From NCBI RefSeq assembly GCF_964355755.1, contig NC_092673.1:10292001-10356000 (forward strand): DNA of 64,000 nt, read 5' to 3'. The position numbers and the translations under genes were made by a program. Positions 29,378 to 60,783 of this stretch are shown one piece after another. Source of the DNA: Antedon mediterranea (Eukaryota > Animalia > Echinodermata). How positions within the stretch are numbered: the stretch's first letter is position 1; every line of letters begins with the position of its first letter. Under the pieces are notes generated by a model. The model ran no database searches, had not been told where the DNA came from, and saw nothing but the letters and a program-made list of their open reading frames with translations.

Positions 29378-29441
29378 AACCGGAGGTGCACCCGATTTCG
29401 CCCATACACTCGCCCCGGAAAGTAAAGGGCCCAGAACAATC

Positions 29442-30671: not shown

Positions 30672-30894
30672 ATGAGCACAAACATATACATCGAAATGCC
30701 GGTCTTCCACGTGGAAAGGGTTCTGAAAGTGCTACGCCTTAAAAAAAGCAACACAGTGGCAACGACGGCGATGCGGATGAAAAAAACAAAAAAGACTTAT
30801 GCGAAGTGATCGACAAAATAGAGAGATTGATAGATTGCAAAGCAGAAAGTGAAAATACTTTATCTTCTAAATTTAAGAAAATGATGGTCGTTTG
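30672..30894 (+). pseudogene. Possible small orphan ORF (~74 aa) frameshifted in an A-run
   Basis: MSTNIYIEMPVFHVERVLKVLRLKK joins a downstream open frame (..DLCEVIDKIERLIDC..) if the A7 run is changed in length. Flanked by AT-rich spacers. Confidence 0.3.
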
Positions 30895-30995
30895 AAATAA
30901 AAGGAAATTGAAATTTATATACATATATGTGTTTTTTATTTATTTTTTTTTTTTTTTTTTTGTTGTTGTTGTTATGTTTCACAAGAATCTTTCTT

Positions 30996-37400: not shown

Positions 37401-38839
37401 TGACACCGGTACCTACCGACATTGTCATACCCAAACTATAATTTAATTATTTAAAACAAAATATTGAATTACAAATATATGTATGTTGCAGAGGATTTAG
37501 ATGAATTACAATACAAATATTTATGTTTTACCTACTACACTATACTCTGTAAATTATGTTATTGTCATGTGGTAGACCTTAAAAATTGAATATTTATTGT
37601 ATGTTAGGCCTATTTTATATTTTATTAATACTGTATTAGTTTAATATTACTATTAATTTATATTATAGAGTAGGCCTACTAGTTTGTACATGTTTTTACC
37701 CAAAAAAAATGAATAAATAATTTGTTATTCAATCTAATTGCTTGTTTGTTCATCAATAACAAAACAATTGTAAGCAAGTATATAACAGTTCTTGTTAGCC
37801 GGTTATTTCAGGTCATATTATTAATATTAGCTAGGCCCGACGCGCCCGATCACAACGTCACTAAGTGACTTTCCGCCCCTGGAACAATCGCTCGCTAATA
37901 GGGCTAGGCCTCGGACTCGTATAAAAGCTATTATAATAGTTATGATAAATATTCCTCAACTAAAATGTATACTGTGATAAATAAACAAGTAATAATATAC
38001 GTTGTATTGGAATGTATTTATTTATATGAATTCTTATACGCGGACAATTATAAACATCGCTTATATCGTTCGCTATAAATAAATTCATAAACACGATGAC
38101 GATGTGTTTACAAAATGGCGGTTTCGCTAGTTTTCGATGGAACAAATAGTGGTACCTTTAGTTTGAATAGTCGGAGCTGCATCCCAACCACCGAATTTTG
38201 TATCTTAATATCGTATTCTGTAGATTATTAATTTTTCTAACAGGGATTTTAAATTCAGGACTGTTCAATTTTTCTAAATATTTTATTTTAACGATTTTCT
38301 AGGGTACAATTTCGGAAAAAAGACATTGGTTGATTTTGCCGTTAAATTACAGATTATCGTTTTGTTCAAATACATTTAATTTTACACGACAATATATTAA
38401 AACCATTTATGAATTTATTTCACTAACAATATTTTTCCGATAATCAGCTAAATTTACAAATATTGTGTTTTTCCAACACCCTAAAATTTAGCAATTTTGA
38501 ACTAAATTAGAAAAGTAGGGCGCCCTCTCCGAGTCGAAATTTGACACGATTTGTCGACTGGCTGTCCCACTGAACTAAAATTGCTATTGTTGTGGTTTTT
38601 GTTTAATATAAATGTTCTTAATAAACAGAAATAAATCAAACAACAATATAATTTAATATAATTCCGTTAAAAGGGAAATTTAGACAGCCTATAAAACAGG
38701 GAAGTCAGAACTCGCGTCGCTCGCAATGCTCGGGAACTTTCTATTTATAGCCAATCGAAAAAAGCTCCGGCTAACTTAAACAATGAAAACGGCTCTCGGA
38801 ACACTTAATGTCCCATTTTCGCTGTTTGACGTGGATGTG
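34409..38839. mobile_element. Non-autonomous Chapaev-like DNA transposon (4431 bp) inserted in the polymerase gene
   Basis: CACA...TGTG termini and 4-bp TSD CCTC (34405-34408 and 38840-38843). Empty site GTGAGCCTCCTGTAC in copy 2 (~51455-51469). AT-rich interior with no convincing ORF. Confidence 0.85.
36461..38572. mobile_element. Nested non-autonomous TIR element (2112 bp), superfamily unassigned
   Basis: TIRs CAGTGGGAAAGCCA / TGGCTGTCCCACTG (13 of 14 match), shared subterminal AAATCGTGT..TCGACT, and 4-bp TSD AACT on both sides. Confidence 0.75.
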
Positions 38840-39889
38840 CCTCCTGTACTTCTTGGCGCAAGAAATTGGATCGTCACCTCTGCGCATGATGCATTCTCCG
38901 TCCATTTCGTCTTCGACGTACGACGTGAATTTCACTTTCCTCGTCTTTAACGACAGCCTGTTTCCCTCCGGATCTCTGCCGTAGAGGTACAACTTTCCGT
39001 TTATATTGGAATACTTGACACGTGTCAGATACACGAACATTGCCTTTTGATCGGACAAAATTCCGAAGTCTGGAACTTCGACAGACTGTTTTTTCTTTTT
39101 GTATTTCTTTTTCTCCAAAGTCGATGCGAGTTCGTGTTGACCGGTTGCTTTTAGAGACTCGACGAAAGCTTTGTAACCGGACTCGTCTTGATGCTTCCAA
39201 ACGTTGTTGAGGAAAAAGTAAACGTTTCTCTCTCTGTCACCGTCGAGGAGGAAATTTGCGTATTCGGGTTCGTAAATTCTTCTGACGACCATTTGTTTGA
39301 CGGTGGCCTCCAGATTTATCGTTTCAGCGAACCGGTTGATGCGTTTCAGAAGAACGTTCCTCTCTCGCAATCGTTTCTTGTATGTTTGATCGATTTCGTA
39401 GTGCGAAAGACGGACCATCGCCGACTTGAAGGAAGAAAAAGGATGATCTTTCTCGAACGGCGTGTTCAAAGTTGTTTTCGCTCCTTTTCTCAAAGCGGCA
39501 ACAAGATCGTGGTGGCCGGCGCATTTAAGAGAATCCACGAAAGCTCCGTGAGCGTGCAATTTCGGATACCTTCGAATGTCGTCGATGAGATAATACGCCA
39601 TTCGATTCTCTTTAACCCCTTTCTCTCTGTCCATACACAGTACAAAGTTCTCGAAATCCCGCGAGTATATTTCTCTGACGACCAATGCTTCGAGTACCGC
39701 CGACAGGATCATGGACGTGGCGAGGAGTTTGCGATGTTTCGTCAGCAACGGTTCGCCTTCAAAGTAACTTTCTTCCATTCCTTCAGCACAGAGGAGACAA
39801 GGTTATGTCGATGTTGAAAGCCACGAATGAAAATAAAGAAAATTATATATTATATACCAAAACATGATAAAAAAAAATTATAATATGTC

Positions 39890-42208
39890 AGATATTTTGA
39901 GGGTTGTAAATGTCAGGCCTAAACAAGTGGACCTTTTTTAAAATCAGAAAAAAAGTTGCATGGCATTATTTTTCATTGATTGATCATTCATTTCATATAT
40001 ATAGACTATTATCAGCTCCTCAGTCATCTACTGGTTTGTGGCGTAACGGGTAATGCGCAGGTTTTAGTGATTTCAATAGTGGGTTCGAACTTCTAGGGAT
40101 ATTTTTTTTCTTTTTTTTTTTATTTGAAAATAAATATTGTTTTTGAAAGTGAGATATTTTTATGGTTTTAAATGTCAAGCCTAACCAAGTGGAAATTTTT
40201 TTAAATCAGAAACAAAGTTGCATAACATCATTTTACATTGATAGATCATTCATTTCATATAAATAGACTATTATCAGCTCTTCACTCATCTACTGCTTTG
40301 TGGCGTAACCGGTAATGCTCAGGTTTGAGTTCTCTCAGTAGTGGGTTCGAACCTCTAGGAATATTTTTTTCTTTTTTTTTTTGTTTGAAAATAAATATTG
40401 TTTTTGAAAGTGAGATATTTTTATGGTTTTAAATGTCAAACCTAACCAAGTGCACCTTTTTTTAACTCAGAAACAAAGTTGCATGGCATTATTTTTCATT
40501 GATTGATCATTCATTTCATATAAATAGACTATTATCAGCTCTTCACTCATCTACTGGTTTGTGGCGTAACGGATAATGCTCAGGTTTGAGTGTTCTCAGT
40601 AGTGGGTTCGAACCTCTAGGGATTTTTTTTTTTTAAATTGAAAATAAATATTTTTTTTGAAAGTGAGATATTTTGAGGGTTGTAAATATCAGACCTAAAC
40701 AAGTGGACCTTTTTTAAAATCAGAAACAAAGTTGCATGGCATTATTTTTCATTGATTGATCATTCATTTCATATAAATAGAGTATTATCAGCTCTTCAGT
40801 CATCTACTGGTTTGTGGCGTAACGGGTAATACTCAAGTTTGAGTGCTCTCACTAGTGGGTTCGAACCTCTACGGATATTTTGTTTCTTTTTTTTTTGTTT
40901 TAATTTAAAATAAATATTGTTTTTAAAAGTGAGATATTTTGAGGGTTGTAAATGTCAAGCCAAACCAAGTGGACCTTTTTTTAAATCAGAAACAAAGTTG
41001 CATAACATCATTTTACATTGATGGATCATTCATTTCATATAAATAGACTATTATCAGCTCTTCACTCATCTACTGGTTTGTGGCGTAACCGGTAGTGCTC
41101 AGGTTTGAGTTCTCGCAGTAGTGGGTTCGAACCTCTACGAATATTTTTTTTCTTTCTTTTTTTTTAATTGAAAATAAATATTGTTTTTGAAAGTGAGATA
41201 TTTTTATGGTTTTAAATGTCAAGCCTAACCAAGTGGACCTTTTTTTACATCAGAAACAAAGTTGCCTAACATAATTTTACATTGATGGATCATTTATTCC
41301 ATATAAATAGACTATTATCAGCTCTTCACTCATCTACTGGTTTGTGGCGTAACCGGTAGTGCTCAGGTTTGAGTTCTCGCAGTAGTGGGTTCGAACCTCT
41401 ACGAATATTTTTTTTTTTTTTTGTTTGAAAATAAATATTGTTTTTGAAAGTGAGATATTTTGAGGGTTGCAACTGTCAGGCCTAAACAAGTGAACATTTT
41501 TTGAAAACAGAAACAAAGTTGCATGGCATTATTTTTCATTGATTGATCATCCATTTCATATAAATAGACTATTATCAGCTCTTCAGTCATATACTGGTTT
41601 GCGGCGTAACGGGTAATGCTCAGGTTTGAGTGATTTCAATAGTGGGTTCGAACTTCTAGGGATATTTTTTTTCTTTTTTTTTTTATTTGAAAATAAATAT
41701 TGTTTTTGAAAGTGAGATATTTTTATGGTTTTAAATGTCAAGCCTAACCAAGTGGACCTTTTTTAAAATCAGAAACAAAGTTGCATAACATCATTTTACA
41801 TTGATGGATCATTCATTCCATATAATAGACTATTATCAGCTCTTCACTTATCTACTGGTTTGTGGTGTAACCGGTAGTGCTCAGGTTTGAGTTCTCGCAG
41901 TAGTGGGTTCGAACCTCTACGAATATTTTTTTTCTTTCCTTTTTTTTAATTGAAAATAAATATTGTTTTTGAAAGTGAGATATTTTGAGTGTTGTAAATG
42001 TCAGGCCTAAACAAGTGGACCTTTTTTAAAATCAGAAACAAAGTTGCATGGCATTATTTTTCATTGATTGATCATTCATTTCATATAAATAGACTATTTT
42101 CAGCCCTTCACTCATCTGCTGGTTTGTGGCGTAACGGATAATGCTCAGGTTTGAGTGCTCTCAGTAGTGGGTTCGAACCTCTAGGGATTTTTTTTTTTAA
42201 ATTGAAAA
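39890..42208 (+). repeat. ~260-bp tRNA-derived satellite, spacer of about 9 monomers between the two composite copies
   Basis: Same monomer. The first part matches 52510-54200 and the last part matches 17600-18290 in diagnostic variants. Confidence 0.95.
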
Positions 42209-45200
42209 TTAATATTATATACAGTACAGTACTTTAAATATACAGTATATTATTATACTTTCAGGTATGTTCCAGGACTAATACCTTCAGAGAAGAGAAT
42301 GAGAGAACGCCAGAAGGAACTGCTTTGCGGGTTGAAATCAAAAAATGAGCTACTGTTGTTTAATTCCAGTCGGCACGAAGGTCTCAGTTTGAAAGAGGTA
42401 GCTGTGATTCACATACCAGATATTAAGGCTTTGGTTTTTAATTACCTTGATGAGTACCGCCAGTAAGTTTATGATTTTATCTTCTCATTTCTGTACACAG
42501 ATTTTGTATGTTCCTGTCAAAAAAGAATAACAATGTTATTATATTTTACAGGCAAAATAAACTTAAAATATACAACGGCAATGAGATATGGCTGAAGTTT
42601 GGCGGAGATCATGGTGGTGAGAGTTTTAAGGCAGAAATACAAATTGTAAGTGTTGCTGATTCGAATGCAGTCAGAAATGTGGTTGTAGTATTGATGTTCC
42701 ATGCAAAGGACAGCGTCTATAACTTGTCGCAAACATTACCAAGAGTGACGGAGCAAGTTATGGGACTGAATGGTCTACAGTGGAGGTAGTTATGTTGTTT
42801 CATTTATCATGGATAAAATGCTATGTATTACAACAGAGTAACAAATACACTTATCTTTATCTATAAATGTGGATTTTTTTTTCTTTCACAGAGAGTATAA
42901 TCTGCGAATGTTTTGTTTTGGTGACTATGATTTTCTAACCAAAATCTACGGAATCTACGGACCAAACTGTAAGTAGTAAAAAAACATAATATAAAAAAAC
43001 AATACATGTTTTTCTAACAAACAAAAAATAGAATGTGAAATAATATTAACAGTAAATTATATTTGTTTTAGGCCGGTATTGTTGCCTATTTTGTAAAAAA
43101 TCCAAAGAGGAACAGCAAACAAAGTCTATTAATGGAGAGTGTAGGACACTGAGGTCATTGGCTGAAAACTTAAAGGCATTTGAGGAACATGGAGGGAAAC
43201 AGGAAATGTCCAAGAATGTATCACTTAGTGTAATATGGGAGCCTATGATTGATATTGAAATTGAGCCAGTAAGTAATTTTTATCTTGTACTCTAAATACC
43301 AATTAAATAATCTTAAATGTCGTAAGTATTTTTTTATAATTATCTTTACAGGTGTCCGTCCCTACCCTCCATATCTCTTTAGGGATATTCAAAAAACTGT
43401 ATGAGATGCTGGAAAGCGAATGGATGTTGCTATATTGATGGAAAGAAAAAATCATACAGAAGAAGATGATTATGATGATGATCAAGCAAAATCAAAGTTT
43501 GATAAGTTAGTGAAGGCAGTGGCTATGAAGCAAGAAGGTATAATTTATTTATTCTCTCCTTTCGTTTTTATTTGTTGTCTTTCTTTGCTTTTTATATTTG
43601 TTTTGTCTTCTTTGTATTGTATATGGCAGAAAATTCAATAAATAAATAAAAATAAATTAAATTGTTTTTAATTCCAGAATTGGCAAGAGAAAAAGATCAA
43701 CTTTTACTACAAATTGAGAAAATAGAAGACGATATCCCTTTATTGTATTTAAAAAATCAAAGTGGGGATGCTAAGGCAAAAATGTCTAAACAATTGCATG
43801 AACTAGTAAAGCTTCAAGATGAGTTGACAGAAACAGTACGTCAATATTTCATTCATAATTATATTGTTTGTTTTTACTTGTTACTTACCCTAAAAATCGA
43901 TGCCTTAGAACCTCACATGGTTATTCTGTACCTATGAAAGCAAACATAATTACCTGCATAAGTATTTTTCTATAGGAAAGGCAAATGGACGTACAACTGA
44001 GGTTTGGGACTGGTCCAATAGTAGCATCTATTGACCAGACACTCCAGTATCATGGTATTAAACGACAGCCATTTCATGGGAAATCTTTTAATGGTAATCA
44101 TGTGCACAAGGCACTAAAGGTATGCACATTAACTGTATGTAGAATTATGTATTCTAATTCTAATACATAATAGTAGTAGGCCTCTTTATATACATGATTC
44201 TTATTTACATTACTACTACTATTACAATACTGTATTATAATTTTTTTTAAATAAAAGTCTGACGTCATAGATGATCTATGCAAGAACATTTCTAGAGTGG
44301 TCAGTATAGAGGCAGATCTCTTTTCAATTAGTAAGGGACAACTGATAATGGCGAAGGCAGCAGAGATTGAAGTAAAATACACAAACTTACTCTCTAAATA
44401 TTCAGCAGTACACAACAGTATCAACCATTGCCGGGTGTTAACAACCGATGACATTCAATCAATTGGTATGATTTTTCTTTATTTCAAACCACTATAGATG
44501 TATCAACTAGATTTGTTTACAAGTTGTAAAATTTTGGAACAAGAACAAAAGTAATCAATTATATTTAAAATAATTTGCGTTTATATTTATACAGATGAAA
44601 AAATAATGGCTTTTATGGACCACTTTCGCCAATACAATGAGAGAATATCACCTAAGCTCCATTTACTTGAGGATCATGTGCTGCCATCAATTAAGAAGTA
44701 GAGAGTTGGGTTAGGACTGCTAGGAGAGCAGGGAGGAGAGTCCATACATGCCTCAATAAACAGAAGGAAACGGTCATTTTGGGGTATGCGTAATGAAAAT
44801 TCAAGAACGACGTCTATTATGAAAGCGCATACCATGTCCACAGTCCCTGAAATATTCAAGGAGGTCGAACACCCAAAAAGCCGAAAGCAGCTGAAATTTA
44901 AATAAAATAGTAGGCAAAAATTAGTGAAAATCTCAGATAAAAACAGTAACCTTATTATATTGTCTATACTATATTAATAATATACCTACTACATAATTGT
45001 CTAACTAGGCTAGGCCTGGAGGTCTATTATCTTAGTTAGTAGGCTATAATAATTGTAATAATATGGTTTATGACTAAAAGGCCTATCTATAACATGTTTT
45101 TATTATTATTGCATAAAAATAACAATAATAACATTATGTTAATATTTATACAAAGTCTCTTTATTGATCTTGAACTCTGTATTTACATTGCTGCTGGATT

Positions 45201-45737
45201 TGCCCTATGTTTAGGCCTAGACATGTGATATAGAGTGCTAGGCCGAAATACTAACCACGTGGATTATATACCAATTTTCAGCTTCATTAAAAAAAAAATG
45301 GGACATAACACCAGCGTGATTTTTTTTCTAACAAATATAAATAGTATATAGTTATTATATTTGTTTGCATTTACTTCTTAAAAAATTAGGTTTTGATTTT
45401 ATATGCGTGCAAAATTACACAAAAAAACGATCCTCAAAAACTGTTAAATATCTAAAAACTTACTCTCGAAATCATTGGTTTACTAGACTGTCTTAAAATG
45501 GCCGTTTCGTTTAAAAGAGATCGTCACATGGTTCTACCATACCTTATCTTCAACTAAATATGAATTATTCATGAGAAAAACAATTTGAAGGCTTCTCATT
45601 CGTTGATTAAAGATTACGGAAATAATGTTTTGAAAAACACATCACTTCCGGTTACTATGCACGCTTCGCTGAGCAGATATTGAAGGTAGCAACCGATAGA
45701 GGGCGCATAACTTTTTTTTCCTGGTGAATTGAATGTG
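42209..45737 (+). mobile_element. Chapaev-type transposon, right half, copy 2 (no nested insertions)
   Basis: Near-identical to copy 1 once the insertions are removed. Terminus ...GAATTGAATGTG at 45737. Confidence 0.7.
42265..44905 (+). pseudogene. Spliced Chapaev-type DDE transposase, copy 2 (5'-truncated; TGG>TAG at ~44699)
   Basis: Same exons and motifs as copy 1. The last exon reads AAGAAGTAG where copy 1 reads AAGAAGTGG. Confidence 0.75.
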
Positions 45738-46442
45738 TTGTCGGCAGCTGGTGGAACTGAGAGGCGGCATGACGGAACAGGAGGCGACGTTCTGGTACAC
45801 GTACATCAACTCGGATCCGAGGATCTGCAAAGCTCTCTCCTCGAAGCCGTCCGATCCCGTTTCCTTGTTGGATCGGTTCCGGACGTGCTCGGCGAACGGT
45901 TCACGAACCGGCTGAGGAACAACCTGAACCCGATTCCGGAGAAGAGAAAGTTTTACGTCGATGACGTCGTCTACAAAGTCGATCAGAGGACCAGAGTCGA
46001 GTCGTTTGAAAGTTTGGCGGTGGTGTTTTCCACTAAAAACCTTGTTCACTTACTCTACAGAGAAGAGGGCATCGTGGTGGGAGACTTGAAGGTTCGACGG
46101 TTACAGAACGAAAAAGGACAAGCGGCGAAAACCGCCTTCGTCGATCACGTGGAGCTCATGGTCGACGCTCCCGATCTGCTGATGTCGTTCCTCACATCGG
46201 CGCTCGATCTGCTGTCGTTATTTGCAGAAACGGTCGTGTTTGCCACGTACAACGACCGGGAACGTCAGTCTCTGACCTCCATGTTTTCGGAACATCAACG
46301 CACCTCCAACGGAGACGTGCTGGTGAAGGTAGACAACAGCATCCGGAGGATCCAGGTTCTGAAAAAAGGTGTGAAAAACCACCCCGATTGCAACAGACGG
46401 CGAGGAAAAATACGATCCGTGCCATCTTTCAGGAAGTGTTAA
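45738..46442 (+). pseudogene. Orphan virus-like ORF, copy 2
   Basis: Duplicate of 28673-29377. Confidence 0.45.
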
Positions 46443-46506
46443 AACCGGAGGTGCGCCCGATTTCGCCCATACACTCGCCCCGGAAAGTAAAGGGCCCGGA
46501 ACAATC

Positions 46507-47274
46507 ATGACGTACACAACCGTTCAATCCAGTTGCAACAGAGCGTCGATGAACTTCTTCCTGGTGAACGTGGTGTCTTCGCAAAACATCGCGTATCGAT
46601 ATCCGTACGACACGCGCGAGACGGCGCAATCCATCCACATGAGGGGCACGAAATTGCAAGACGACATGATAGAATTTCAATCGCCTCTGAAAAGAGGATC
46701 GACCGCGCTGTATTTCGTTTCCACAGGATCGACGAACATCACGACGAGGGGTAACTTCAACGTGAGAACAAAAACTTCGCTCAACTACCAACTGCAACAG
46801 GCGATAACTTAGAGAAAATACAAGAGCGTACCTATGCACATTTCGACAAACAACTTGAACCATGCAGGTAGGATGTACGGCGTGCTGGACGATCCGTCTG
46901 ACGTAGTCGAACGACTTAAGCTTTTGGAATCTTTGACGGTCGACAGCAACGATCTGTTTCCGTCGGTCAAGTTCACCATCCCGTACCATGTGGACGGACG
47001 AGCGAGAAAGTTCCAGTTGTTTTCTCCTTCGCTTTGCTGCAACACTCAGTTTCAGACGGTCGCTTCTCTCAAGCAAACCGGTCGCACGTTCCTCGACATG
47101 ATATTAAGGCACGTCGACAAATTCGATTCAGAACTGTCCCGAAAGTGCATTGCAGAGGAGCTGGATTGTGGCGAACCGTTGAACGATCGAACACTGCTGG
47201 AAATAAGTCCGTCGAACCGTCCGATCTGCTGCAAAAGGTCCGGTTGCAAACGCAAACGGTACGTCACAAAGTGA
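46507..47274 (+). pseudogene. TBP-like gene, copy 2 (premature TAG at 46810-46812)
   Basis: ORFs 46507-46812 and 46834-47274 are in frame. The stop replaces the Trp codon of copy 1. Confidence 0.6.
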
Positions 47275-48046
47275 AAAACTTTTTGTTTTTTTTTGTTTTG
47301 TCTGATTCTCCCGATGAGTTCTTACCTGTAAAAAACATTAAGATCAAGTATTTGGACTTTAGAAACTCTTCTTTGTACATGAGAAGACGACCGATCAAGG
47401 CATTTCAGAACTTTCAGAACGTTGGAAATGTTGCTGAACCTGTCGAGGTCGTGGACGAAGAAGAGTCCGAAGAGAAAAAAAAAAGAAAGATTGTTTTACA
47501 AGTAATAACGGACTAAGGAATCATGCCGAAAAAGCTGGCGATTCTTTCCCGACGGACAAAATCGACTCGAAATAGACAGGGGCAAAAAAAAAAACCATTT
47601 TAGAAAACCAACTATAACTGATTAAATAGTAACATTTTACAGTATATTAATACAGAAATAGACTTGGAAGAAAAGAATAATATTTACAAAATTCACAGAA
47701 AAGGAGAAAAGAAAGTGGAAAAAAAACAACACAAGAATGAGCACAAACATATACATCGAAATGCCGGTCTTCCACGTGGAAAGGGTTCTGAAAGTGCTAC
47801 GCCTTAAAAAAAGCAACACAGCGGCAACGACGGCGATGCGGATGAAAAAAACAAAAAAGACTTATGCGAAGTGATCGACAAAATAGAGAGATTGATAGAT
47901 TGCAAAGTGAAAATACTTTATCTTCTAAATTTAAGAAAATGATGGTCGTTTGAAATAAAAGGAAATTGAAATTTATATACAGTTTTTTAGTTTTTTTTTT
48001 GTTTTTTTTGTTGTTTTTGTTGTTATGTTTCACAAGAATCTTTCTT

Positions 48047-49240
48047 ATGGACTTGTTCAAAGAGAGACCGGTGTTGAAGTTGGGATTGCCTCAACCTGCC
48101 GTGCAGGTCAGGTGGTCAAAGATAATGACAGTCGACCCTAGACATTTCAAGTCGGACGACTACGACGACTACGACGACTACGACGACGACGGTGGCGGTG
48201 ACGAGGGCAACGATTACGGAAGGCGTTATCTGACCGGTCGTCTCTGGTTGACTAGAATCGAAGATTACACAGACTACACGACGCTTTCCCGAACTCTACA
48301 GTCTCTGGACGATTGGAGCGTGTTTGTGAGAAGCGGCAACCCCTCTCCAACGTTCCAGTGGTACTTCGACGGAAGGCGTTACGGATCCGACAACCCTTAC
48401 TTCGAGCTTCTGATGAGAATTGAGGCATCTGTGTCTGTCGTACAACAGATCGCTACCGTTGTGTCCGAAGAACGTCGCTTGCGCAGTCGAAACCTGCCTC
48501 GACAATTTGGCCGAGACGGAAGTTGGCGTAGGCAGAAGCGGCGTGCATTTGGACCCGCCTCCGATGTTCGTCAGGCACGACAGACGACAGATCGGATGGC
48601 TTAACGCAGACTTCTTCTCTGCCCTTTTAACCCTGGAAACCTCGCAACGACTGATGGTAGGTCTGGCCGATAGATCTTCCCGTCTTGTTTTCGAAGGATC
48701 GCAAAAGAAGGAAAGCATCCTGAATTTCGAGTTGGCGGAAGTGGAATTCTTCGAATTCGTCGAGGACGTCGTGGAAGAAGCAACGAACCCGTTGAGAGAC
48801 TGGTGGGCGTACGGAAATATTTCAATTCCGTCTCGGCCAAATTCGTCCGTCCTCTGAGGCTACTCACCGAGGTCAAAGAAAGACACACCGCTTTCATGAC
48901 GGACTCGGACGTGTTCCTGCCAAACGTTTGGAAACGGTTGAGAGCGACCGGGACCACGTTGCCTTCTTGCATAACCGAATCGACCGTGTTGCACGAAATG
49001 GACAGGAAATGTAAGGAAAAGGTGATTTCGCTTTTTCTAGGAAAACACCTAGAGCCTGTCGAAGACGATCTCGCCGTAGACGAAAACAAGATAAGAAGGG
49101 AGAGGTCGAAACGATGCATGAACGATGAGATCGACGAACGACCACCAAAATCTCTCGATTCGCCGTTTGTTTCGGGGAATCTACTGCTCGGCGTAAAAGA
49201 TCTGGACGTGACCGTGATTTGCGGATACGCAATACTTTGA
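48047..49240 (+). pseudogene. Orphan virus-like gene, copy 2, frameshifted
   Basis: ORFs 47966-48604, 48420-48857 and 48803-49240. One extra DDY repeat unit relative to copy 1. Confidence 0.5.
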
Positions 49241-49396
49241 CAAATTGACAAACAAAAGAATACAAGAAAAACTGTTAAACAATATTTTTGGTTTTTGTGT
49301 TTTTATTTCCTTCAACCATTCCTTTATTTCTTTTCTTTCAAAAGTAGACTTAAAACTATTTTTTATTTATTTTTTATTTCTTGATTATTTTACGCT

Positions 49397-52300
49397 TCAT
49401 CTTTTGCTGTGTAGTTCCATGCCTTTCCGCAGAATCGGTGTGCGTCGCAACACAAAGCGTTTGTACATCTTAAGATGAATAATCTCCTCTCCCCGTTTTC
49501 GAGATCTACGCTTCGAAAGACCGGTTCGTTTTTTTCTAACCTGTCTCTTCTTCGGCGGTCGACACCTTCACCATGGAACAGCAACTGCCACTGAACACAT
49601 TCCACCCTCCGCAGAGCTGCAGCTCCTTCCGGGGCAGTTGCGTCGGAATCTTTTCCAAAGTATCTTTGATCTCCTTCAACCGATGCAATATGCTCGTTCG
49701 GCAGTCCCCTGCTTCCGCGTTCCAAACGATTACGCTCAAAACGTTGCTTTTGTCGAGTTCGCAAAATTGTTTCAGCTCTCGGATCAAGTGCTCAACTTCC
49801 ACGGTCGGATGGATGCACGAATGCAACAGCGGATGATAGGAAACGCCTCCGTGTTTCAGGTGGTAAGGCGTCTGTCTGTAGCATCCGAGGGCGGCGCAAC
49901 TCTTTTTGAATCTGTGAGAGTTCGTCTCGTTTTTGCCCTTTCGAACAACGTCCCGGACCTCGATCGCTTCGTCGTCCTTCAGTTCGTTGACGACTCGACA
50001 AAATTCTTTTACGCAACGGTCGGCCGCCGTATTGCTATCTCCGATCCTCAGGGCTATGTCGATCATGTTCTGTTCCCGTCGAGACGCGAATCTTTCGACG
50101 CCGGGCCTCGTCATCTCTGTGGTGCTCACCCTCCCGTCTGCATGGAGACACGCATACCTTTTCTTCTTGTCCGTCAGCAGCAAGCCGCAAAGCGTCTCCC
50201 TGTGTTTGAACCTTTGAAAGCTTCCTTCGCCCAAGACTCGGGCGAATTGCTCTTCCAGCTCCTGTCTCCCGCCTGGAACTATGTCCAAAAACAACGAGTC
50301 GGTGTCGCCGTACAGAACCCGAGCACCGTTTTCTTCCGCGCAATTTTTTAGCGCATTCAGTTGTTCCCTGCACTTTTCCGTCACGTGGTTGTAAAGGCTT
50401 TTCTTGCCAGACGTGCACAGACATCCGACGCTTGTTTGTACGCGGCGGAGTTCTGGGGAGTGATGTTTTTTTCTTCTCTAGCCGACACCAGTCTTTTCAT
50501 GACGGACGGAAGCAGACCTTCGCGTACTTCGGCGTCGACGAAAGAGCCGTCTTCGAGAGCCGTCGACTCGTCCACGTTTTTGTCGATGATGAACCTCGGA
50601 TAGCAAGACTGAAAGTCGTACAAGTCGACGTCTCTGTGAATGCCGGACACGGTGTCCAGCACCAGGCCTCCTCTGCACGTTTCGTCTTCGTTGACGCTTC
50701 CTTTGGGCTTCGGGTCCGCATTGCTCCTCGGAAACACCACACGCTGACGCTGCGCTTCTCTGCACAGCACCGACGAAAGGACACCGGTCGACGATCCGTT
50801 GGGGAACCTTCCCACTATTCTGGACAAGTTCGTCTCGATTTCGATCAATTTTTTCGCTTCCACCTCCGACACGTAGCGTTCCAGCACGCAAACGTCGTCG
50901 TCTAGCTTCTTCGCCGACAAGCTCGCCGCTAGCTCGTGACAAGATTCGTAACCGACGTAATCGTAGACGGAGTCGTTGTCGCCGCCCGCCGGCGACCGTA
51001 CGTGTTTTGAAGTGTCCAAGCACACGGGGAACCCGTCTACGGCAAGGGGTACCTCGCACAGCCAACATCTGGCGACGATGCTGTCCTTGACCCGACCACC
51101 GTGATACACGAACACGTCGGCAGATTCGATCGACTTTGCGATTTCCGACAGCGTGTCGCATTTTCGCCGTGCAGTCTCTTTCCGTCGGACAGCATTGCCG
51201 AAATTATTCGACCGTTCACGTCCCACCTGAAAACTACGCACAACACCGACAGTCGCACCGGGTGAACGTTCTGTCGTTCCAAGTGGATCTGCTCGTCGTA
51301 CGTCAAGCCTTCGACGTTGCCGTCTTTGTCTTCGGAGTAACTGTGCCAAGCGCATCCGTGAACCCCGACCGCGCACTGAGCGTCCAGGTCGCCCACGGAC
51401 GAGGGGAAGTTGCCGAAGAGGTTGTCTACCTTGATGCCGTTCCTTTCGTCGGTCGTGAGCCTCCTGTACTTCTTGGCGCAAGAAATTGGATCGTCACCTC
51501 TGCGCATGATGCATTCTCCGTCCGTTTCGTCTTCGACGTACGACGTGAATTTCACTTTCCTCGTCTTCAACGACAGCCTGTTTCCCTCCGGATCTCTGCC
51601 GTAGAGGTACAACTTTCCGTTTATCTTGGAATACTTGACACGTGTCAGATACACGAACATTGCCTTTTGATCGGACAAAATTTCGAAGTCTGGAACTTCG
51701 ACAGACTGTTTTTTCTTTTTGTATTTCTTTTTCTCCAAAGTCGATGCGAGTTCGTGTTGACCGGTTGCTTTTAGAGACTCGACGAAAGCTTTGTAACCGG
51801 ACTCGTCTTGATGCTTCCAAACGTTGTTGAGGAAAAAGTAAACGTTTCTCTCTCTGTCACCGTCGAGGAGGAAATTTGCGTATTCGGGTTCGTAAATTCT
51901 TCTGACGACCATTTGTTTGACGGTGGCCTCCAGATTTATCGTTTCAGCGAACCGGTTGATGCGTTTCAGAAGAACGTTCCTCTCTCGCAATCGTTTCTTG
52001 TATGTTTGATCGATTTCGTAGTGCGAAAGACGGACCATCGCCGACTTGAAGGAAGAAAAAGGATGATCTTTCTCGAACGGCGTGTTCAAAGTTGTTTTCG
52101 CTCCTTTTCTCAAAGCGGCAACAAGATCGTGGTGGCCGGCGCATTTAAGAGAATCCACGAAAGCTCCGTGAGCGTGCAATTTCGGATACCTTCGAATGTC
52201 GTCGATGAGATAATACGCCATTCGATTCTCTTTAACCCCTTTCTCTCTGTCCATACACAGTACAAAGTTCTCGAAATCCCGCGAGTATATTTCTCTGACG

Positions 52301-52398
52301 ACCAATGCTTCGAGTACCGCCGACAGGATCATGGACGTGGCGAGGAGTTTGCGATGTTTCGTCAGCAACGGTTCGCCTTCAAAGTAACTTTCTTCCAT
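49397..52398 (-). pseudogene. Tandem-CARD / family-B DNA polymerase fusion, copy 2 (~1000 aa reconstructed)
   Basis: ORF 51037-52398 reads from the CARD-like repeats into the polymerase N-terminal/exonuclease-fold region without a stop. 7-bp deletion at ~51157, shared motif-B frameshift at ~50427, 2-bp deletion at ~49545. Confidence 0.87.
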
Positions 52399-52509
52399 TC
52401 CTTCAGCACAGAGGAGACAAGGTTATGTCGATGTTGAAAGCCACGAATGAAAATAAAGAAAATTATATATTATATACCAAAACATGATAAAAAAAAATTA
52501 TAATATGTC

Positions 52510-55500
52510 AGATATTTTGAGGGTTGTAAATGTCAGGCCTAAACAAGTGGACCTTTTTTAAAATCAGAAAAAAAGTTGCATGGCATTATTTTTCATTGAT
52601 TGATCATTCATTTCATATATATAGACTATTATCAGCTCCTCAGTCATCTACTGGTTTGTGGCGTAACGGGTAATGCGCAGGTTTTAGTGATTTCAATAGT
52701 GGGTTCGAACTTCTAGGGATATTTTTTTTCTTTTTTTTTTTATTTGAAAATAAATATTGTTTTTGAAAGTGAGATATTTTTATGGTTTTAAATGTCAAGC
52801 CTAACCAAGTGGAAATTTTTTTAAATCAGAAACAAAGTTGCATAACATCATTTTACATTGATAGATCATTCATTTCATATAAATAGACTATTATCAGCTC
52901 TTCACTCATCTACTGCTTTGTGGCGTAACCGGTAATGCTCAGGTTTGAGTTCTCTCAGTAGTGGGTTCGAACCTCTAGGAATATTTTTTTCTTTTTTTTT
53001 TGTTTGAAAATAAATATTGTTTTTGAAAGTGAGATATTTTTATGGTTTTAAATGTCAAACCTAACCAAGTGCACCTTTTTTTAACTCAGAAACAAAGTTG
53101 GATGGCATTATTTTTCATTGATTGATCATTCATTTCATATAAATAGACTATTATCAGCTCTTCACTCATCTACTGGTTTGTGGCGTAACGGATAATGCTC
53201 AGGTTTGAGTGTTCTCAGTAGTGGGTTCGAACCTCTAGGGATTTTTTTTTTTTAAATTGAAAATAAATATTTTTTTTGAAAGTGAGATATTTTGAGGGTT
53301 GTAAATATCAGACCTAAACAAGTGGACCTTTTTTAAAATCAGAAACAAAGTTGCATGGCATTATTTTTCATTGATTGATCATTCATTTCATATAAATAGA
53401 GTATTATCAGCCCTTCAGTCATCTACTGGTTTGTGGCGTAACGGGTAATACTCAAGTTTGAGTGCTCTCACTGGTGGGTTCGAACCTCTACGGATATTTT
53501 GTTTCTTTTTTTTTTGTTTTAATTTAAAATAAATATTGTTTTTAAAAGTGAGATATTTTGAGGGTTGTAAATGTCAAGCCAAACCAAGTGGACCTTTTTT
53601 TAAATCAGAAACAAAGTTGCATAACATCATTTTACATTGATGGATCATTCATTTCATATAAATAGACTATTATCAGCTCTTCACTCATCTACTGGTTTGT
53701 GGCGTAACCGGTAGTGCTCAGGTTTGAGTTCTCGCAGTAGTGGGTTCGAACCTCTACGAATATTTTTTTTCTTTCTTTTTTTTTAATTGAAAATAAATAT
53801 TGTTTTTGAAAGTGAGATATTTTTATGGTTTTAAATGTCAAGCCTAACCAAGTGGACCTTTTTTTACATCAGAAACAAAGTTGCCTAACATAATTTTACA
53901 TTGATGGATCATTTATTCCATATAAATAGACTATTATCAGCTCTTCACTCATCTACTGGTTTGTGGCGTAACCGGTAGTGCTCAGGTTTGAGTTCTCGCA
54001 GTAGTGGGTTCGAACCTCTACGAATATTTTTTTTTTTTTTGTTTGAAAATAAATATTGTTTTTGAAAGTGAGATATTTTGAGGGTTGCAACTGTCAGGCC
54101 TAAACAAGTGAACATTTTTTGAAAACAGAAACAAAGTTGCATGGCATTATTTTTCATTGATTGATCATCCATTTCATATAAATAGACTATTATCAGCTCT
54201 TCAGTCATAATTATATTGGTTTGCGGCGTAACGGGTAATGCTCAGGTTTGAGTGATTTCAATAGTGGGTTCGAACCTCTAGGGATATTTTTTTTCTTTCT
54301 TTTTTTTAAATTGAAAATAAATATTGTTTTTGAAAGTGAGATATTTTGAGGGTTGTAAATGTCAAGCCAAACCAAGTGGACCTTTTTTTAAATCAGAAAC
54401 AAAGTTGCATAACATCATTTTACATTGATGGATCATTAATTTCATATAAATAGACTATTATCAGCTCTTCACTCATCTACTGGTTTGTGGCGTAACCGGT
54501 AGTGCTCAGGTTTGAGTTCTCGCAGTAGTGGGTTCGAACCTCTACAAATATTTTTTTTCTTTTTTTTTTTTAATTGAAAATAAATATTGTTTTTGAAAGT
54601 GAGATATTTTGAGGGTTGTAAATATCAGGCCTAAACAAGTGGACCTTTTTTAAAATCAGGAACAAAGTTGCATGGCATTATTTTTATTGATTGATCATTC
54701 ATTTCATATAAATAGAGTATTATCAGCTCTTCAGTCATCTACTGGTTTGAGGCGTAACGGGTAATGCTCAAGTTTGAGTGCTCTAGGGATATTGCTTTTT
54801 TATTGTTTGAAAATAAATATTGTTTTTGAAAGTGAGATTTTGTTATGGTTTTAAATGTCAAGCCTAGCCAAGTGGACCTTTTTTAAAATCAGAAACAAAG
54901 TTGTATAACATCATTTTACATTGATGGATCATCCATTTCATATAAATAGACTATTATCAGCTCTTCACTCATCTACTGGTTTGTGGCGTAACCGGTAGTG
55001 CTCAGGTTTGAGTTCTCGCAGTAGTGGGTTCGAACATCTACGAATATTTTTATTCTTTCTTTTTTTTTAATTGAAAATAAATATTGTTTTTGAAAGTGAG
55101 ATATTTTGAGTGTTGTAAATGTCAAGCTTAAACAAGTGGACCTTTTTTAAAATCAGAAACAAAGTTGCATGGCATTATTTTTCATTGATTGATCATTCAT
55201 TTCATATAAATAGACTATTATCAGCTCCTCAGTCATCTACTGGTTTGTGGCGTAACGAGTAATGCTCAGGTTTGAGTGCTCTCAATAGTGGGTTCGAACC
55301 TATACGGGTATTTTTTTTCTTTTTTTTTTAATTGAAAATAAATATTGTTTTTGAAAGTGAGATATTTTGTGGGTTGCAACTGTCAGGCCTAAACAAGAGA
55401 ACCTTTTTTTAAATCAGAAACAAAGTTGCATGGCATTATTTTTCATTGATTGATCATCCATTTCATATAAATAGACTATTATCAGCTCTTCAGTCATATA

Positions 55501-58500
55501 CTGGTTTGCGGCGTAACGGGTAATGCTCAGGTTTGCGTGATTTCAATAGTGGGTTCGAACTTCTAGGGACATATTTTTTCTTTTTTTTTTATTTGAAAAT
55601 AAATATTGTTTTTGAAAGTGAGATATTTTTATGGTTTTAAATGTCAAGCCTAACCAAGTGGACCTTTTTTAAAATCAGAAACAAAGTTGCATAACATCAT
55701 TTTACATTGATGGATCATTCATTTCATATAAATAGACTATTATGAGCTCTTCACTCATCTACTGGTTTGTGGCGTAACCGGTAGTGCTCAGGTTTGAGTT
55801 CTCGCAGTAGTGGGTTCGAACCTCTACGAATATTTTTTTCTTTTTTTTTTTTTTTGAAAATAAATATTGTTTTTGAAAGTGAGATATTTTTATGGTTTTA
55901 AATGTCAAGCCTAACCAAGTGGACCTTTTTTTAAATCAGAAAAAAAGTTGCATAACATCATTTTACATTGATGGATCATTTATTTCATATAAATAGACTA
56001 TTATCAGCTCTTCACTCATCTACTGGTTTGTGGCGTAACCGGTAGTGCTCAGGTTTGAGTTCTCGCAGTAGTGGGTTCAAACCTCTACGAATATTTTTTT
56101 TCTTTCTTTTTTTTTAATTGAAAATAAATATTGTTTTTGAAAGTGAGGTATTTTGAGTGTTGTAAATGTCAGGCCTAAACAAGTGGACCTTTTTTTAAAT
56201 CAGAAACAAAGTTGCATGGCATTGTTTTTCATTGATTGATCATTCATTTCATATAAATAGACTATTGTCAGCTCCTCAGTCATCTACTGGTTTTGTGGCG
56301 TAACCGGTAGTGCTCAGGTTTGAGTTCTCGCAGTAGTGGGTTCGAACCTCTACGAATATTTTTTTTCTTTCTTTTTTTTTAATTGAAAATAAATATTGTT
56401 TTTGAAAGTGAGGTATTTTGAGTGTTTTAAATGTCAGGCCTAAACAAGTGGACCTTTTTTTAAATCAGAAACAAAGTTGCATGGCATTGTTTTTCATTGA
56501 TTGATCATTCATTTCATATAAATAGACTATTATCAGCTCCTCAGTCATCTACTGGTTTTGTGGCGTAACCGGTAGTGCTCAGGTTTGAGTTCTCGCAGTA
56601 GTGGGTTCGAACCTCTACGAACATTTTTTTCTTTTTTTTTGGTTTGAAAATAAATATTTTTTTTGAAAGTGAGATATTTTGAGGGTTGTAAATATCAGGC
56701 CTAAACAAGTGGACCTTTTTTAAAATCAGAAACAAATTTGCATGGCATTATTTTTCATTGATTTATTATTTATTTCATATAAATAGACTATTATCAGCTC
56801 TTCAGTCATATACTGGTTTGCGGCGTAACGGGTAATGCTCAGGTTTGAGTGATTTCAAAATATTTTGAGTGTTGTAAATGTCAGGCCTAAACAAGTGGAC
56901 CTTTTTTTTAATCAGAAACAAAGTTGCATAACATCATTTTACATTGATGGATCATTCATTTCATATAAATAGACTATTATCAGCTCTTCACTCATCTACT
57001 GGTTTGTGGCGTAACCGGTAGTGCTCAGGTTTGAGTTCTCGCAGTAGTGGGTTCGAACCTCTACGAATATTTTTTTTCTTTTTTTTTTTAATTGAAAATA
57101 AATGTTGTTTTTGAAAGTGAGATATTTTTATGGTTTTAAATGTCAAGCCTAACCAAGTGGACCTTTTTTTACATCAGAAACAAAGTTGCCTAACATAATT
57201 TTACATTGATGGATCATTTATTCCATATAAATAGACTATTATCAGCTCCTCAGTCATCTACTGGTTTGTGGCGTAACGGGTAATGCTCAAGTTTGAGTGC
57301 TCTCACTAGTGGGTTCGAACCGCTACGGATATTTTGTTTCTTTTTTTTTTTTTAATTTAAAATAAATATTGTTTTTGAAAGTGAGATATTTTGAGGGTTG
57401 TAAATGTCAGGCCTAAACAAGTGAACCTTTTTTAAAATCAGAAACAAAGTTGCATGGCATTATTTTTCATTGATTGATCATTAATTTCATATAAATAGAC
57501 TATTATCAGCTCTTCAGTTATCTACTGGTTTGTGGCGTAACGGGGAATACCCAGGTTTGAGTGCTCTCATTAGCGGGTTCCAACCTCTAGGGATATTGCT
57601 TTTTTATTGTTTGAAAATAAATATTGTTTTTGAAAGTGAGATTTTTTTATGGTTTTAACTGTCAAGCCTAACCAAGTGGACCTTTTTTAAAATTAGAAAC
57701 CAAGTTGCATAACATCATTTTACATTGATGGATCATCCATTTCATATAAATAGACTATTATCAGCTATTCACTCATCTACTGGTTTGTGGCGTAACCGGT
57801 AGTGCTCAGGTTTGAGTTCTCGCAGTAGTGGGTTCGAACATCTTCGAATATTTTTATTCTTTCTTTTTTTTTAATTGAAAATAAATATTGTTTTTGAAAG
57901 TGAGATATTTTGAGTGTTGTAAATGTCAGGCCTAAACAAGTGGACCTTTTTTAAAATCAGAAACAAAGTTGCATGGCATTATTTTTCATTGATTGAATAT
58001 TTATTTCATATAAATAGACTATTATCAGCTCCTCAGTCATCTACTGGTTTGTGGCGTAACGGATAATGCTCAGGTTTGAGTGCTCTCAGTAGTGGGTTCG
58101 AACCTCTAGGGATTTTTTTTCTTTTTTTTTTAATTGAAAATAAATATTGTTTTTGAAAGTGAGATATTTTGAGGGTTGCAACTGTCAGGCCTAAACAAGT
58201 GAACCTTTTTTGAAATCAGAAACAAAGTTGCATGGCATTATTTTTCATTGATTGATCATCCATTTCATATAAAGAGACTATTATCAGCTCTTCAGTCATA
58301 TACTGGTTTGCGGCGTAACGGGTAATGCTCAGGTTTGAGTGATTTCTATAGTGGGTTCGAACTTCTATGGATATTTTTTTTCTTTTTTTTTTTATTTGAA
58401 AATAAATATTGTTTTTGAAAGTGAGATTTTTTTATGGTTTTAAATGTCAAGCCTAACCAAGTGGACCTTTTTTAAAATCAGAAACAAAGTTGCATAACAT

Positions 58501-59060
58501 CATTTTACATTGATGGATCATTCATTTCATATAAATAGACTATTATCAGCTCTTTACTCATCTACTGGTTTGTGGCGTAACCGGTAGTGCTCAGGTTTGA
58601 GTTCTCGTAGTAGTGGGTTCGAACATCTACGAATATTTTTATTCTTTCCTTTTTTTTAATTGAAAATAAATATTGTTTTTGAAAGTGAGATATTTTGAGT
58701 GTTGTAAATGTCAGGTCTAAACAAGTGGACCTTTTTTAAAATCAGAAACAAAGTTGCATGGCATTATTTTTTATTGATTGAATATTCATTTCATATAAAT
58801 AGACTATTATCAGCTCCTCAGTCATCTACTGGTTTGTGGCGTAACGGATAATGCTCAGGTTTGAGTGCTCTCAGTAGTGGGTTCGAACCTCTAGGGATTT
58901 TTTTTTTAAATTGAAAATAAATATTGTTTTTGAAAGTGAGATACTTTTAGGGTTGTAAATATCAGGCCTAAACAAGTGGACCTTTTTAAAAATCTGAAAC
59001 AAAGTTGCATGGCATTATTTTTCATTGATTGATCATTCTTTTCATATAAATAGACTATTA
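52510..59060 (+). repeat. ~260-bp tRNA-derived satellite, array 3 (about 25 monomers)
   Basis: Same monomer, with some internally deleted units (~54780, ~56860). Confidence 0.95.
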
Positions 59061-60783
59061 AAATAAAAGGGTCTAATTTTGGACATTTTTTGAAAATTTC
59101 CCAGAGGGGGACCATAAGATTTTTTTTCGAAAAATGGCGAAAATTTACACTTTTTAAAATTCGAAAATTCAATAATTATGCTATAATATTGCCATTTTTC
59201 CAAATATATTGTTCTAACATCATCTTATAGAGCCATAGTAACTAGTTATGTCAAAAAATAAAAGGGTCGAAATTGGGCTTTTTTTCCTAAATTTTCCTCC
59301 GGGGACCACAGGAACTTTTTCGCTAAATGACGAAAATTTCCACCTTTTAAAATTCAATAATTAGACTATAATATTGCCATTTATGCACATATATTGTGTA
59401 AACATCAACTTATAGAGCCATAATAAATAGTTATGTCAAAAAATAAAAGGTTTGAAATTTCGCCATTTTTTGCGACAATTTCCCTGCGGGGGACCATACG
59501 ATTTTTTTCAAAAACGACCAAAATGTCCACCTTTTTAAATTCTATAATTAGGCTATAATATTGCCATTTATGCACATATATTGTGTTAACATCATCTTAT
59601 ACAGCCGGCCATAGTAACTCGTTATGTCAAAAAACAAGGCCAACAACAATAAGTTGCGTGCTTTCAGAAATAAATGAACTTTCAAAAAGTAATGTACTTT
59701 AAAACTTTTCTGTACATCAAAACAGTTCAAAAGTACAGAGAAGCGATAAAACGCAAAGTGATACCGGACCGACAGACAGACCGACAGACCGACCGACATA
59801 GTGAACTGTAGAGTCGCGTCCACGCGACTAATAAAAGGTTTGAAGTTTGGCCATTTTTGCGAAAATTTCCCTACGGGGGAACCATAGGAATTTTTTCGAT
59901 AAATGGCAAAAATTTCCAATTTCAAAATTCTATAATTAGGCTATAATATTGCTATTTATGCGCATATATTGTTTTAACATCATCTTATAGAGCCATACTA
60001 ACTAGTTATGTCAAGAAATAAAATGGTCAAAATTTGGACATTTGGCCAATAAGATTTTTTTTTCGAAAAATGTTCAAAATTTCCATTGTTTAAAATTCAA
60101 CAATTATGCTATAATATTGCCATTTATGCAAATAATTATATTGTGCTAACATCATCTTATAGAGCTATAGTAACTAGTTATGTCAAAAAATAAAAGGATC
60201 AAAATTTGGCCATTTTTCGAAAATTTCCCTGGGGGGACCATAGGAATTTTTTTCGAAAAATGACTAAAATTTCCACTTCTTAAAATTCAAAAATTATGCT
60301 ACAATATTGCCATTTATGCACATATATTGTGCTGACATCATCTTATAGAGCCATAGCAACTACTTATCTCAAAATATAAAAGGGTCGAAAATGGCAAAAA
60401 CTTTACACTTTTTAAAATTAAATAATTATGCTATAATTTTCCCATTTATGGACATATATTGTGTTAACATCATCTTATAGAGCCATCGTAACTAGTTATG
60501 TTAAAAAAGAAAAGGTTCAAAATTTTGCCAATTTTCGAAAATTTCCCTCTGGGGGACTGACTATAAGAAGTTTTTTGAAAAAGGGCCAAAATTTCCAATT
60601 TTTAAAATTCTATAATTATGATATAATATTGCCATTTATGCAAATATACTGTGTTAACATCATCTTTAGAGCCATAGTAACTAGTTATGTCAAAAAATAA
60701 AAGGGTCGAAAATTTGCCATTTTTCGAAAAATTTTCCTACTGAGGACCACAAGATTTTTTTCTCGAAAAATGGCGAAAATTTA
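59061..60783. repeat. Second satellite, ~187-bp diverged monomers
   Basis: CTATAATATTGCCATTTATGC...AACATCATCTTATAGAGCCATAGTAACTAGTTATGTC recurs at about 59181, 59366, 59553, 59941, 60109, 60299, 60431 and 60620. Confidence 0.9.
59633..59831 (-). mobile_element. Short HINE/DINE-1-like element of a second family
   Basis: Minus strand starts TTAGTCGCGTGGACGCGACT (palindrome), then a (GTCG/GTCT)n microsatellite, and ends GCACGCAACTT...GGCCTTGTT. Inserted in an A/T run of the 187-bp satellite. Confidence 0.75.

Follow-up and report, generated by a model that had tools for sequence, protein, structure and literature searches.

A block at positions 45738-52509 of the Antedon mediterranea contig NC_092673.1 stretch analysed here (assembly GCF_964355755.1, positions 10,292,001 to 10,356,000, 64,000 nucleotides, hereafter the window) is, on balance, best regarded as a fragment of an undescribed lineage of nuclear double-stranded DNA viruses. 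The lineage would be common to crinoids; a piece of it would have entered the germ line and is now decaying there. The main interest of the block is its unusual family B DNA polymerase (PolB). The block, called copy B below, was marked by a first-pass annotation of the window, and its features, including several open reading frames (ORFs), are as follows.

45738-52509, unstranded: copy B of the virus-like block, delimited by GC and CpG contrast, with a transposon end and a satellite as borders
45738-46442, plus strand: ORF1, an orphan that the transposon truncates at its 5' end and whose frame changes near 45912; the codon model is best in these frames, GC at third codon positions (GC3) 0.65
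46507-47274, plus strand: ORF2, a conserved protein, family not assigned, about 70% identical to P0001/P0007 (ENA/Logan contigs)
47275-48046, plus strand: AT-rich spacer (GC 0.33) with one or two possible short basic/acidic ORFs (about 47316-47510 and 47736-47870) and weak codon-model preference
48047-49240, plus strand: ORF3, probably a single orphan gene (about 400 codons) interrupted by frame changes near 48418 and 48814; coding signal unbroken through three successive frames, GC3 0.59-0.67
49241-49389, unstranded: convergent-end spacer with four AATAAA on the minus strand, candidate poly(A) signals for PolB (4 sites in 149 bases)
49390-51660, minus strand: primer-dependent (RNA/DNA-primed-type) PolB in four pieces with a Cys-rich tail; Pfam PF00136 E 4.4e-8 and 7.8e-7
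51715-52398, minus strand: tandem pair of CARD-like domains, the repeats 33% identical to each other (E 5e-17)

The block has a GC content of 0.484 and a CpG observed/expected ratio (o/e) of 1.45. The corresponding values are 0.32 and 0.59 in the transposon to its left, 0.30 and 0.62 in a long interspersed element (LINE) of the window, and 0.32 and 0.64 in the satellite. Gene spans account for 5677 of 6773 bases, and GC3 is 0.55-0.73 in block genes versus 0.26 in the host LINE. After training on five block pieces with homology support, a codon model ranked the expected frame first of six in 10/10 further segments; it was weak for two short spacer ORFs and the tail. The plus strand genes converge on the minus strand PolB, which aligns to an open relative, P0023, without any intron. 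The left border is the transposon end at 45737, where a GTG end at 45735-45737 lies inside ORF1, and the right border adjoins a 261-bp satellite at 52510. The first-pass description of a compact, intronless, CpG-rich and convergent block unlike its AT-rich flanks, with its left gene cut by a transposon and its right end against satellite, is thus borne out. Its T/A-rich spacers were found for three of the four (GC 0.20-0.33) but not for one short spacer (GC 0.61).

P0023 is an open 738-amino acid protein whose first residue is the PolB methionine. Copy B PolB aligns to it in four pieces, at P0023 residues 1-164, 169-401, 378-705 and 702-732, with 38-53% identity. Frame changes lie near 51160, 50430 and 49530. 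PF00136 scored 32.8 and 28.7 bits on two window pieces and 69.6 bits on P0023 (cut-off 23). It was the only one of the two families matched, as the protein-primed family PF03175 matched neither the window pieces nor P0023. In multiple alignments motifs A and C are intact. The tyrosine of motif B is replaced by valine or isoleucine, and this motif lies at a frame break in both copies of the block found in the window. The fingers are shortened, and in the MAFFT alignment the exonuclease motifs appear degenerate. To judge from the sequence, PolB may lack proofreading.

In the PDB the best match of P0023 was 5mdn (E 2e-20), an archaeal polymerase, followed by Pol alpha (3e-9), Pol II (9e-9) and Pol delta (1.5e-7). 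This order does not support the earlier label "Pol-alpha-like". A host Pol alpha paralog or retrocopy was rejected because the protein has 738 amino acids versus an expected 1400 or more (approximately), its tail has no zf-DNA_Pol or PDB match, and Pol alpha is not the best match. The Cys-rich tail matched neither Pol alpha nor Pol delta C-terminal domains. An orthologue of bacterial Pol II or archaeal PolB3 was also rejected, since NCBIfam NF004421 gave 70 bits versus a cut-off of 570.

The C-terminal PolB piece was compared with 1.84 billion representatives and gave 5 matches at E ≤0.001 and 1 at ≤1e-10. The closest (44% identity, E 4e-35) is the representative of five clustered Anneissia japonica proteins, all predicted, from contigs 1-128 kb long (XP_033122522.1 on a 128-kb contig, XP_033123481.1 and three more); apart from these and P0023, the searches gave no close relative. 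They are named "DNA polymerase delta catalytic subunit-like" or "DNA polymerase II-like" and are probably mis-annotated foreign genes. A profile search returned 73 matches at E ≤1e-8. The crinoid cluster and P0023, which is 79% identical to the crinoid protein, came first, followed by a drop to E 4e-18; past the drop, matches with a name were bacterial Pol II or "DNA polymerase I/-2". Block PolB is 39-50% identical per piece to one of the crinoid proteins (P0011, from the 128-kb contig), with which it has common insertions and deletions and a similar C-terminal region. Unlike the block, the Anneissia proteins are annotated as host genes, and their records lack the CARD part. The Anneissia records P0002 and P0008-P0011 are 91-97% identical members of the same polymerase family. 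Taken together, the block and the "Pol delta-like" records of the crinoid suggest that crinoids have a large DNA virus.

Two quick trees were built. For the first, the 66 of 83 locus PolBs that have both motifs were joined with 20 protein rows and 24 near-duplicates were removed, leaving 62 rows; the second holds 35 hand-picked rows. In both, P0023 and P0011 sit together next to Pol II-like rows, on a branch 2.2-2.3 changes per column in length, with Shimodaira-Hasegawa-like approximate likelihood ratio test (SH-aLRT) values of 92 and 93, not starred. Both trees also keep the pair apart from the Delta-like viral rows, whose own branch has a value of 93 in the first tree and a starred 99 in the second. 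By direct BLAST, 18 prokaryotic-side rows from protein searches scored 114-66 bits and the best viral_contigs row 65. One locus from an unclassified metagenome contig, L069, encodes at 2170-5397 a 1075-amino acid Delta-like PolB with a Cys-rich tail and a long tree branch.

One survey assigns the PolBs of eukaryotic viruses to the groups EukVir1 and EukVir2/3 and notes that large trees misplace EukVir1 (Kazlauskas et al. 2020, PMC7544198). In another, PolBs of Megavirales and Herpesvirales are sister to Pol delta (PMC4889955). Because these surveys put large eukaryotic virus PolBs in Delta-like or EukVir1 groups, a polymerase truly on the Pol II/B3 side would mean an independent replicase origin in animal DNA viruses.

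Comparison with known systems gave partial likenesses. Outside the family, bacterial Pol II and archaeal PolB3 (NF004421; PDB 5mdn, 1q8i) match best (PDB E 2e-20, NCBIfam E 1e-19), and they are of similar length with the same catalytic motifs. Block PolB differs from them in its approximately 30% identity, shortened fingers, replaced motif B tyrosine, degenerate-looking exonuclease motifs, Cys-rich tail and eukaryote-type orphan neighbours. Polintons/Mavericks and adintoviruses are also endogenous GC-rich intronless animal DNA elements with their own PolB. The Polinton/adintovirus enzyme is protein-primed and of the PF03175 type, whereas block PolB matches PF00136 only, in keeping with the earlier statement that the block does not match a Polinton. 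No rve integrase, double jelly-roll capsid, packaging ATPase or terminal inverted repeats were seen in the block, which lacks both of its original ends. Endogenous large DNA viruses of animals (Teratorn/alloherpes-like elements, endogenous nimaviruses) and viruses with Delta-like PolBs (EukVir2/3 in PMC7544198) resemble the block in their primer-dependent PolB, compact genes and decaying germ-line copies. They differ in that block PolB stands apart in the two trees, a separation qualified by the approximately unbiased (AU) test described below, and in that no hallmark gene is common to both.

HelPol (Buck et al. 2024, bioRxiv 10.1101/2024.03.25.586562) is likewise an exotic polymerase that remotely resembles cellular PolB, and it occurs in small and midsize animal DNA viruses. 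Four excerpts of its supplement have a GGRxE/GARVD-type motif before motif A, whereas block PolB has a GGLVL type. On this by-eye comparison identity with HelPol was set aside. The word "crinoid" occurs 0 times in the main text of Buck et al. 2024, and "crinoid" and "Anneissia" occur 0 times in its six supplement files, at least two of which are incomplete. No paper on the element or on a large DNA virus of crinoids was found in a literature search that left most subscription journals outside.

Upstream of PolB lies the tandem CARD-like pair. Pfam CARD matched with E 0.011 over positions 3-83 of the 85 in the model and CARD_2 with E 0.057, and both repeats match the CARD clan. MDA5 and CED-3 make up two of five weak PDB profile matches. 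"CARD-like" therefore appears a fair label for the pair, below cut-off as it is. In both window copies, the pair and the PolB start share one reading frame. Of the "CARD-PolB" of the first-pass annotation, the tandem CARD-like pair has weak but consistent support; a stable fusion is doubtful, since P0023 starts at the PolB methionine.

ORF2 is a real conserved protein, with a relative about 70% identical that is an open reading frame on ENA/Logan contigs; the contig with P0001 is 19 kb long. It is broken by an in-frame stop near 46810 in copy B and by a frame change near 30100 in copy A, the second copy of the block. The earlier TBP-like label is without statistical support, and the motif order of ORF2 resembles TBP by eye only. 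No TBP (PF00352) match was found in Pfam or in PDB phmmer and profile searches. Against 7 archaeal TBPs z was 0.3 and 1.4, with 97/300 and 33/300 shuffles reaching the real score; hhalign gave a probability of 0.2%, hmmsearch was negative and there was no internal-repeat signal. ORF2 had no usable ESM Atlas match and no relative in the contig collections searched. AlphaFold2 models of ORF2 had predicted local distance difference test scores of 32.4 and 31.0, and at that level fold searches on them are meaningless rather than negative.

The remaining genes are orphans. ORF1 had no Pfam or PHROG match, its NCBIfam matches all had E > 0.1, and no longer homolog was found, which is weak evidence. 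ORF3 had no meaningful family match in Pfam, PHROG or NCBIfam. Since its coding signal runs through three successive frames, what had been read as separate small ORFs plus an orphan at 48047-49240 is probably one broken gene of about 400 codons. An exact look-up of six window ORFs in a protein collection found 0/6, and Rfam gave no match across 45000-53600. Mononucleotide shuffling of the convergent spacer gave four or more AATAAA in 23/2000 shuffles. The leader before the CARD-like pair is AT-rich with TATA-like runs, and long A/T runs occur in the spacers.

The first-pass annotation overlooked a second copy of the block (copy A) in the window, at 28673-34408 and 38840-39889. The features of copy A and of the host repeats around both copies are as follows.

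28673-34408, unstranded: copy A, left part; 61 substitutions in 5711 aligned columns and 11 indel events versus copy B
34409-38839, unstranded: 4.4-kb non-coding insert splitting copy A PolB, with CAC..GTG ends, a 4-bp target duplication and no long ORF
38840-39889, unstranded: right-hand part of copy A, with the PolB start and the CARD-like pair; 5 substitutions versus copy B over 1054 columns
42200-45737, plus strand: truncated, intron-containing DUF1280 (Chapaev/Transib-like) transposon remnant, the end of which cuts ORF1; DUF1280 E 7.6e-12, above cut-off
52510-59060, unstranded: 261-264 bp satellite array (tandem repeat) holding both composite inserts

Including their flanks, namely the transposon remnant and the satellite behind, copies A and B are 98.5-98.7% identical, and both junctions are identical. 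The same junctions and the approximately 1% divergence suggest one insertion that was later duplicated rather than two insertions. The 10.3-kb piece made up of transposon remnant and block lies inside the satellite array and is present twice. Every long gene of copy B is broken by frameshifts or a stop, contrary to the idea of intact genes: PolB has three frame changes, ORF2 a stop, and ORF1 and 48047-49240 frame changes. The gene breaks are partly common to the two copies and partly private. Copy A PolB is without the first frame change of copy B, and the motif B frame change is common to both. Among transitions between the copies, 18/36 touch CpG versus 28% expected (p 0.005). This excess suggests that methylation-type decay has begun while CpGs are still plentiful, so that the earlier claim of abundant CpGs stands and that of little methylation-driven decay does not.

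Part of the stretch was found in eleven sequencing runs from six studies, and contigs were compared in six of these (X1, X5, X6, X8, X9 and X10). The holders are organism A in two studies (one possibly the source of the window) and organism B in one, with small shares in organisms C and D. No RNA run is among the listed holders, a result that has no bearing on expression. Without the transposon, contigs continue leftward past 45738 for 95 bases in X5, 1608 in X6 and 1183 in X8. An X6 contig also runs past approximately 52497, with a 145-base end that starts like the A run of the window and then departs from it; it is not the satellite of the window. These extensions, leftward in X5, X6 and X8 and rightward in X6, indicate that the source element was larger than the block, as had been proposed. 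In X1 one contig ends at 45767, a 31-base bridge over the transposon junction, and another starts at 45738. This fork of the X1 graph at 45738 suggests a transposon-free copy in X1 too. The X5 and X6 contigs differ in length at the frame-break sites of the window, suggesting that those lesions are not in all natural copies. In organism B (X6, X8) internally deleted block variants, at 48503-48815 and 50170-51344, occur beside the longer form.

Contig depths of block versus transposon pieces were 40-74 versus 3-7 in X5, 37-52 versus 16-17 in X6, 65-133 versus 74-86 in X8 and 39-49 versus 32-34 in X1. In X5 the contig depth of the transposon-free form is thus 6-15 times that of the transposon pieces at its flank. 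Contig depth does not measure copy number, and X5 could be either an RNA or a DNA run, so the excess does no more than hint at extra copies or a free form. X9 and X10 (organisms C and D) yielded short pieces at depth 2-7 in 24/30 and 16/30 bins, which are not readable as host range.

The locus shows the stepwise fate of a virus-like fragment: cut, satellite capture, duplication and CpG erosion. A longer element would have integrated, and a Chapaev-type transposon would then have inserted into ORF1. A piece of the transposon-block composite would have come to lie within the satellite, and the composite unit would have been duplicated, probably by unequal exchange between satellite arrays. Host methylation and later insertions would have eroded both copies, so that neither would yield a full polymerase. 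In the source virus, genes may have been transcribed by host RNA polymerase II, which fits the AATAAA sites, the AT-rich, TATA-like leader and the lack of a clear ribosome-binding site, by eye, at four block starts. The genome would have been copied by the short primer-dependent PolB, with intact catalytic motifs and probably without proofreading, and the CARD-like pair was probably a decoy against host CARD-based death or immune signalling. A bolder proposal is conceivable but doubtful. It holds that the block represents a new family of nuclear DNA viruses of animals, which would still circulate or lie latent in crinoids or related echinoderms. These viruses would have a short proofreading-less Pol II/B3-side polymerase, in contrast to known large DNA viruses of eukaryotes, a tandem CARD decoy and a highly diverged TBP, and would be present in X5 as a high-copy or free form.

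Several results weigh against a viral fragment of this kind. The 6.8-kb block, both ends of which are cut off, yielded no capsid, terminase, packaging ATPase, helicase or integrase gene and no terminal repeat. Since no virion or packaging gene is seen, what stands of the first-pass proposal of an undescribed endogenous large DNA virus or mobile element is a foreign, compact, intronless block cut from a larger element; the large DNA virus is something we only infer. Close relatives of PolB were absent from IMG/VR (viral_contigs) and JGI metagenome contigs, where two distant PolB loci were found in metagenomes. The N-terminal region of PolB has no significant pairwise similarity to one archaeal PolB, so that loss of proofreading can be argued only weakly. 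CARD-clan scores were under curated cut-offs (16.2 bits versus 23.9; 13.9-16.8 versus 28.2). The X5 contig differs in length at the CARD-PolB junction and contigs of X6, X8 and X9 skip 548 bases, most of the CARD-like pair; together with the start of P0023 at the PolB methionine, this means that a CARD-PolB fusion is not established. Finally, the trees contain no labelled cellular eukaryotic polymerases or EukVir1 polymerases (baculo-, nudi-, nima-, pox-, alloherpes- or malacoherpesvirus), and in the AU test joining P0023 and P0011 to 19 Delta-like viral rows was not rejected (p 0.11).

The same AU result is compatible with a highly diverged member of a known group of large animal DNA viruses (nimavirus/nudivirus-like, alloherpes/malacoherpes or Teratorn-like, mirusvirus or Nucleocytoviricota), in which case long branches or composition would have produced the prokaryote-like placement as an artefact. 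Some known animal viruses have CARD decoys, and viral TBP is also found among them. The branch of P0023 and P0011 is long, the skewed letter make-up of P0023 recurs in several of its Pol II neighbours in the tree, and the prokaryotic tree rows were chosen as best matches of the query, which is a selection bias. Misplacement of divergent EukVir1 in large trees, noted in PMC7544198, would act in the same direction. We consider this origin unlikely, as in both trees PolB groups with Pol II-like rows and apart from the Delta-like viral ones, and the prokaryotic-side rows match better by BLAST than the best viral_contigs row. In addition, 738 amino acids is short for a PolB of these families. A nuclear plasmid or self-synthesising mobile element of echinoderms that has no capsid and uses a primer-dependent PolB, as an analogue of Polintons or casposons, is distinctly unlikely. 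Such an element would explain why no virion gene is seen, and at least five PolB copies in a crinoid genome and several copies or variants per sample here are consistent with it. However, no integrase, transposase or terminal repeat belonging to the block itself was seen, the transposon that ends at 45737 arrived later and is missing in the X5, X6 and X8 contigs, and a CARD-like pair with several orphans may suit a virus better.

DNA of a prokaryotic virus or symbiont with a Pol II/B3-type polymerase, taken into the host genome, is very improbable. Bacterial Pol II and archaeal B3 are the best matches outside the family, and the top ESM Atlas clusters are phage PolBs (0.94-0.95), although such taxonomic rows do not count as a sign of transfer. 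Against such a source stand the NCBIfam score far under its cut-off, the absence of meaningful PHROG, NCBIfam or phage matches for the other block genes, the lack of a clear ribosome-binding site at four starts, the AATAAA sites and A/T runs in the spacers, and the CARD-like pair. Scarcely credible is a chimeric assembly of a co-sequenced virus with host repeats. The right junction is bridged by no listed contig and the left only in X1, possibly the source sample, by 31 bases; but the two copies are 1% apart with the same junctions, carry private host-transposon insertions (one with a target duplication, in PolB) and show CpG decay.

The surroundings of the two copies are those of an AT-rich, CpG-depleted animal genome with Chapaev-type elements. 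Chapaev-type DNA transposons are marked by CAC..GTG ends, a 4-bp target duplication and a DUF1280/RAG1-like transposase, and on these hallmarks the flank remnant and the insert at 34409-38839 are of the Chapaev type. The GTG end of the remnant is 84% like the end of the insert over 45 bases. The insert holds 9 TAGGCCTA sites and has a CpG o/e of 1.18, above that of the other host repeats. The copy A counterpart of the remnant, at approximately 18280-28672, contains two retroelement insertions. At 18944-24900 the copy A remnant carries an L1/Tx1-like LINE, absent from copy B, whose ORF1 and ORF2 frames are long, the latter split near 21465, and a second short reverse-transcriptase-like fragment lies on the minus strand at 25364-25860 in copy A only. 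The 261-264 bp satellite (1-18279, 39890-42197 and 52510-59060) has A-box/B-box-like motifs by eye and may be tRNA-derived, though ARAGORN calls no unit. Inside the satellite array, at 12800-14228, are five tRNA-Val(AAC) genes in a 286-bp tandem repeat. Beyond the satellite, three more tandem arrays (185-190 bp, a CT-rich 19-bp unit and 87 bp) occupy 59164-64000.

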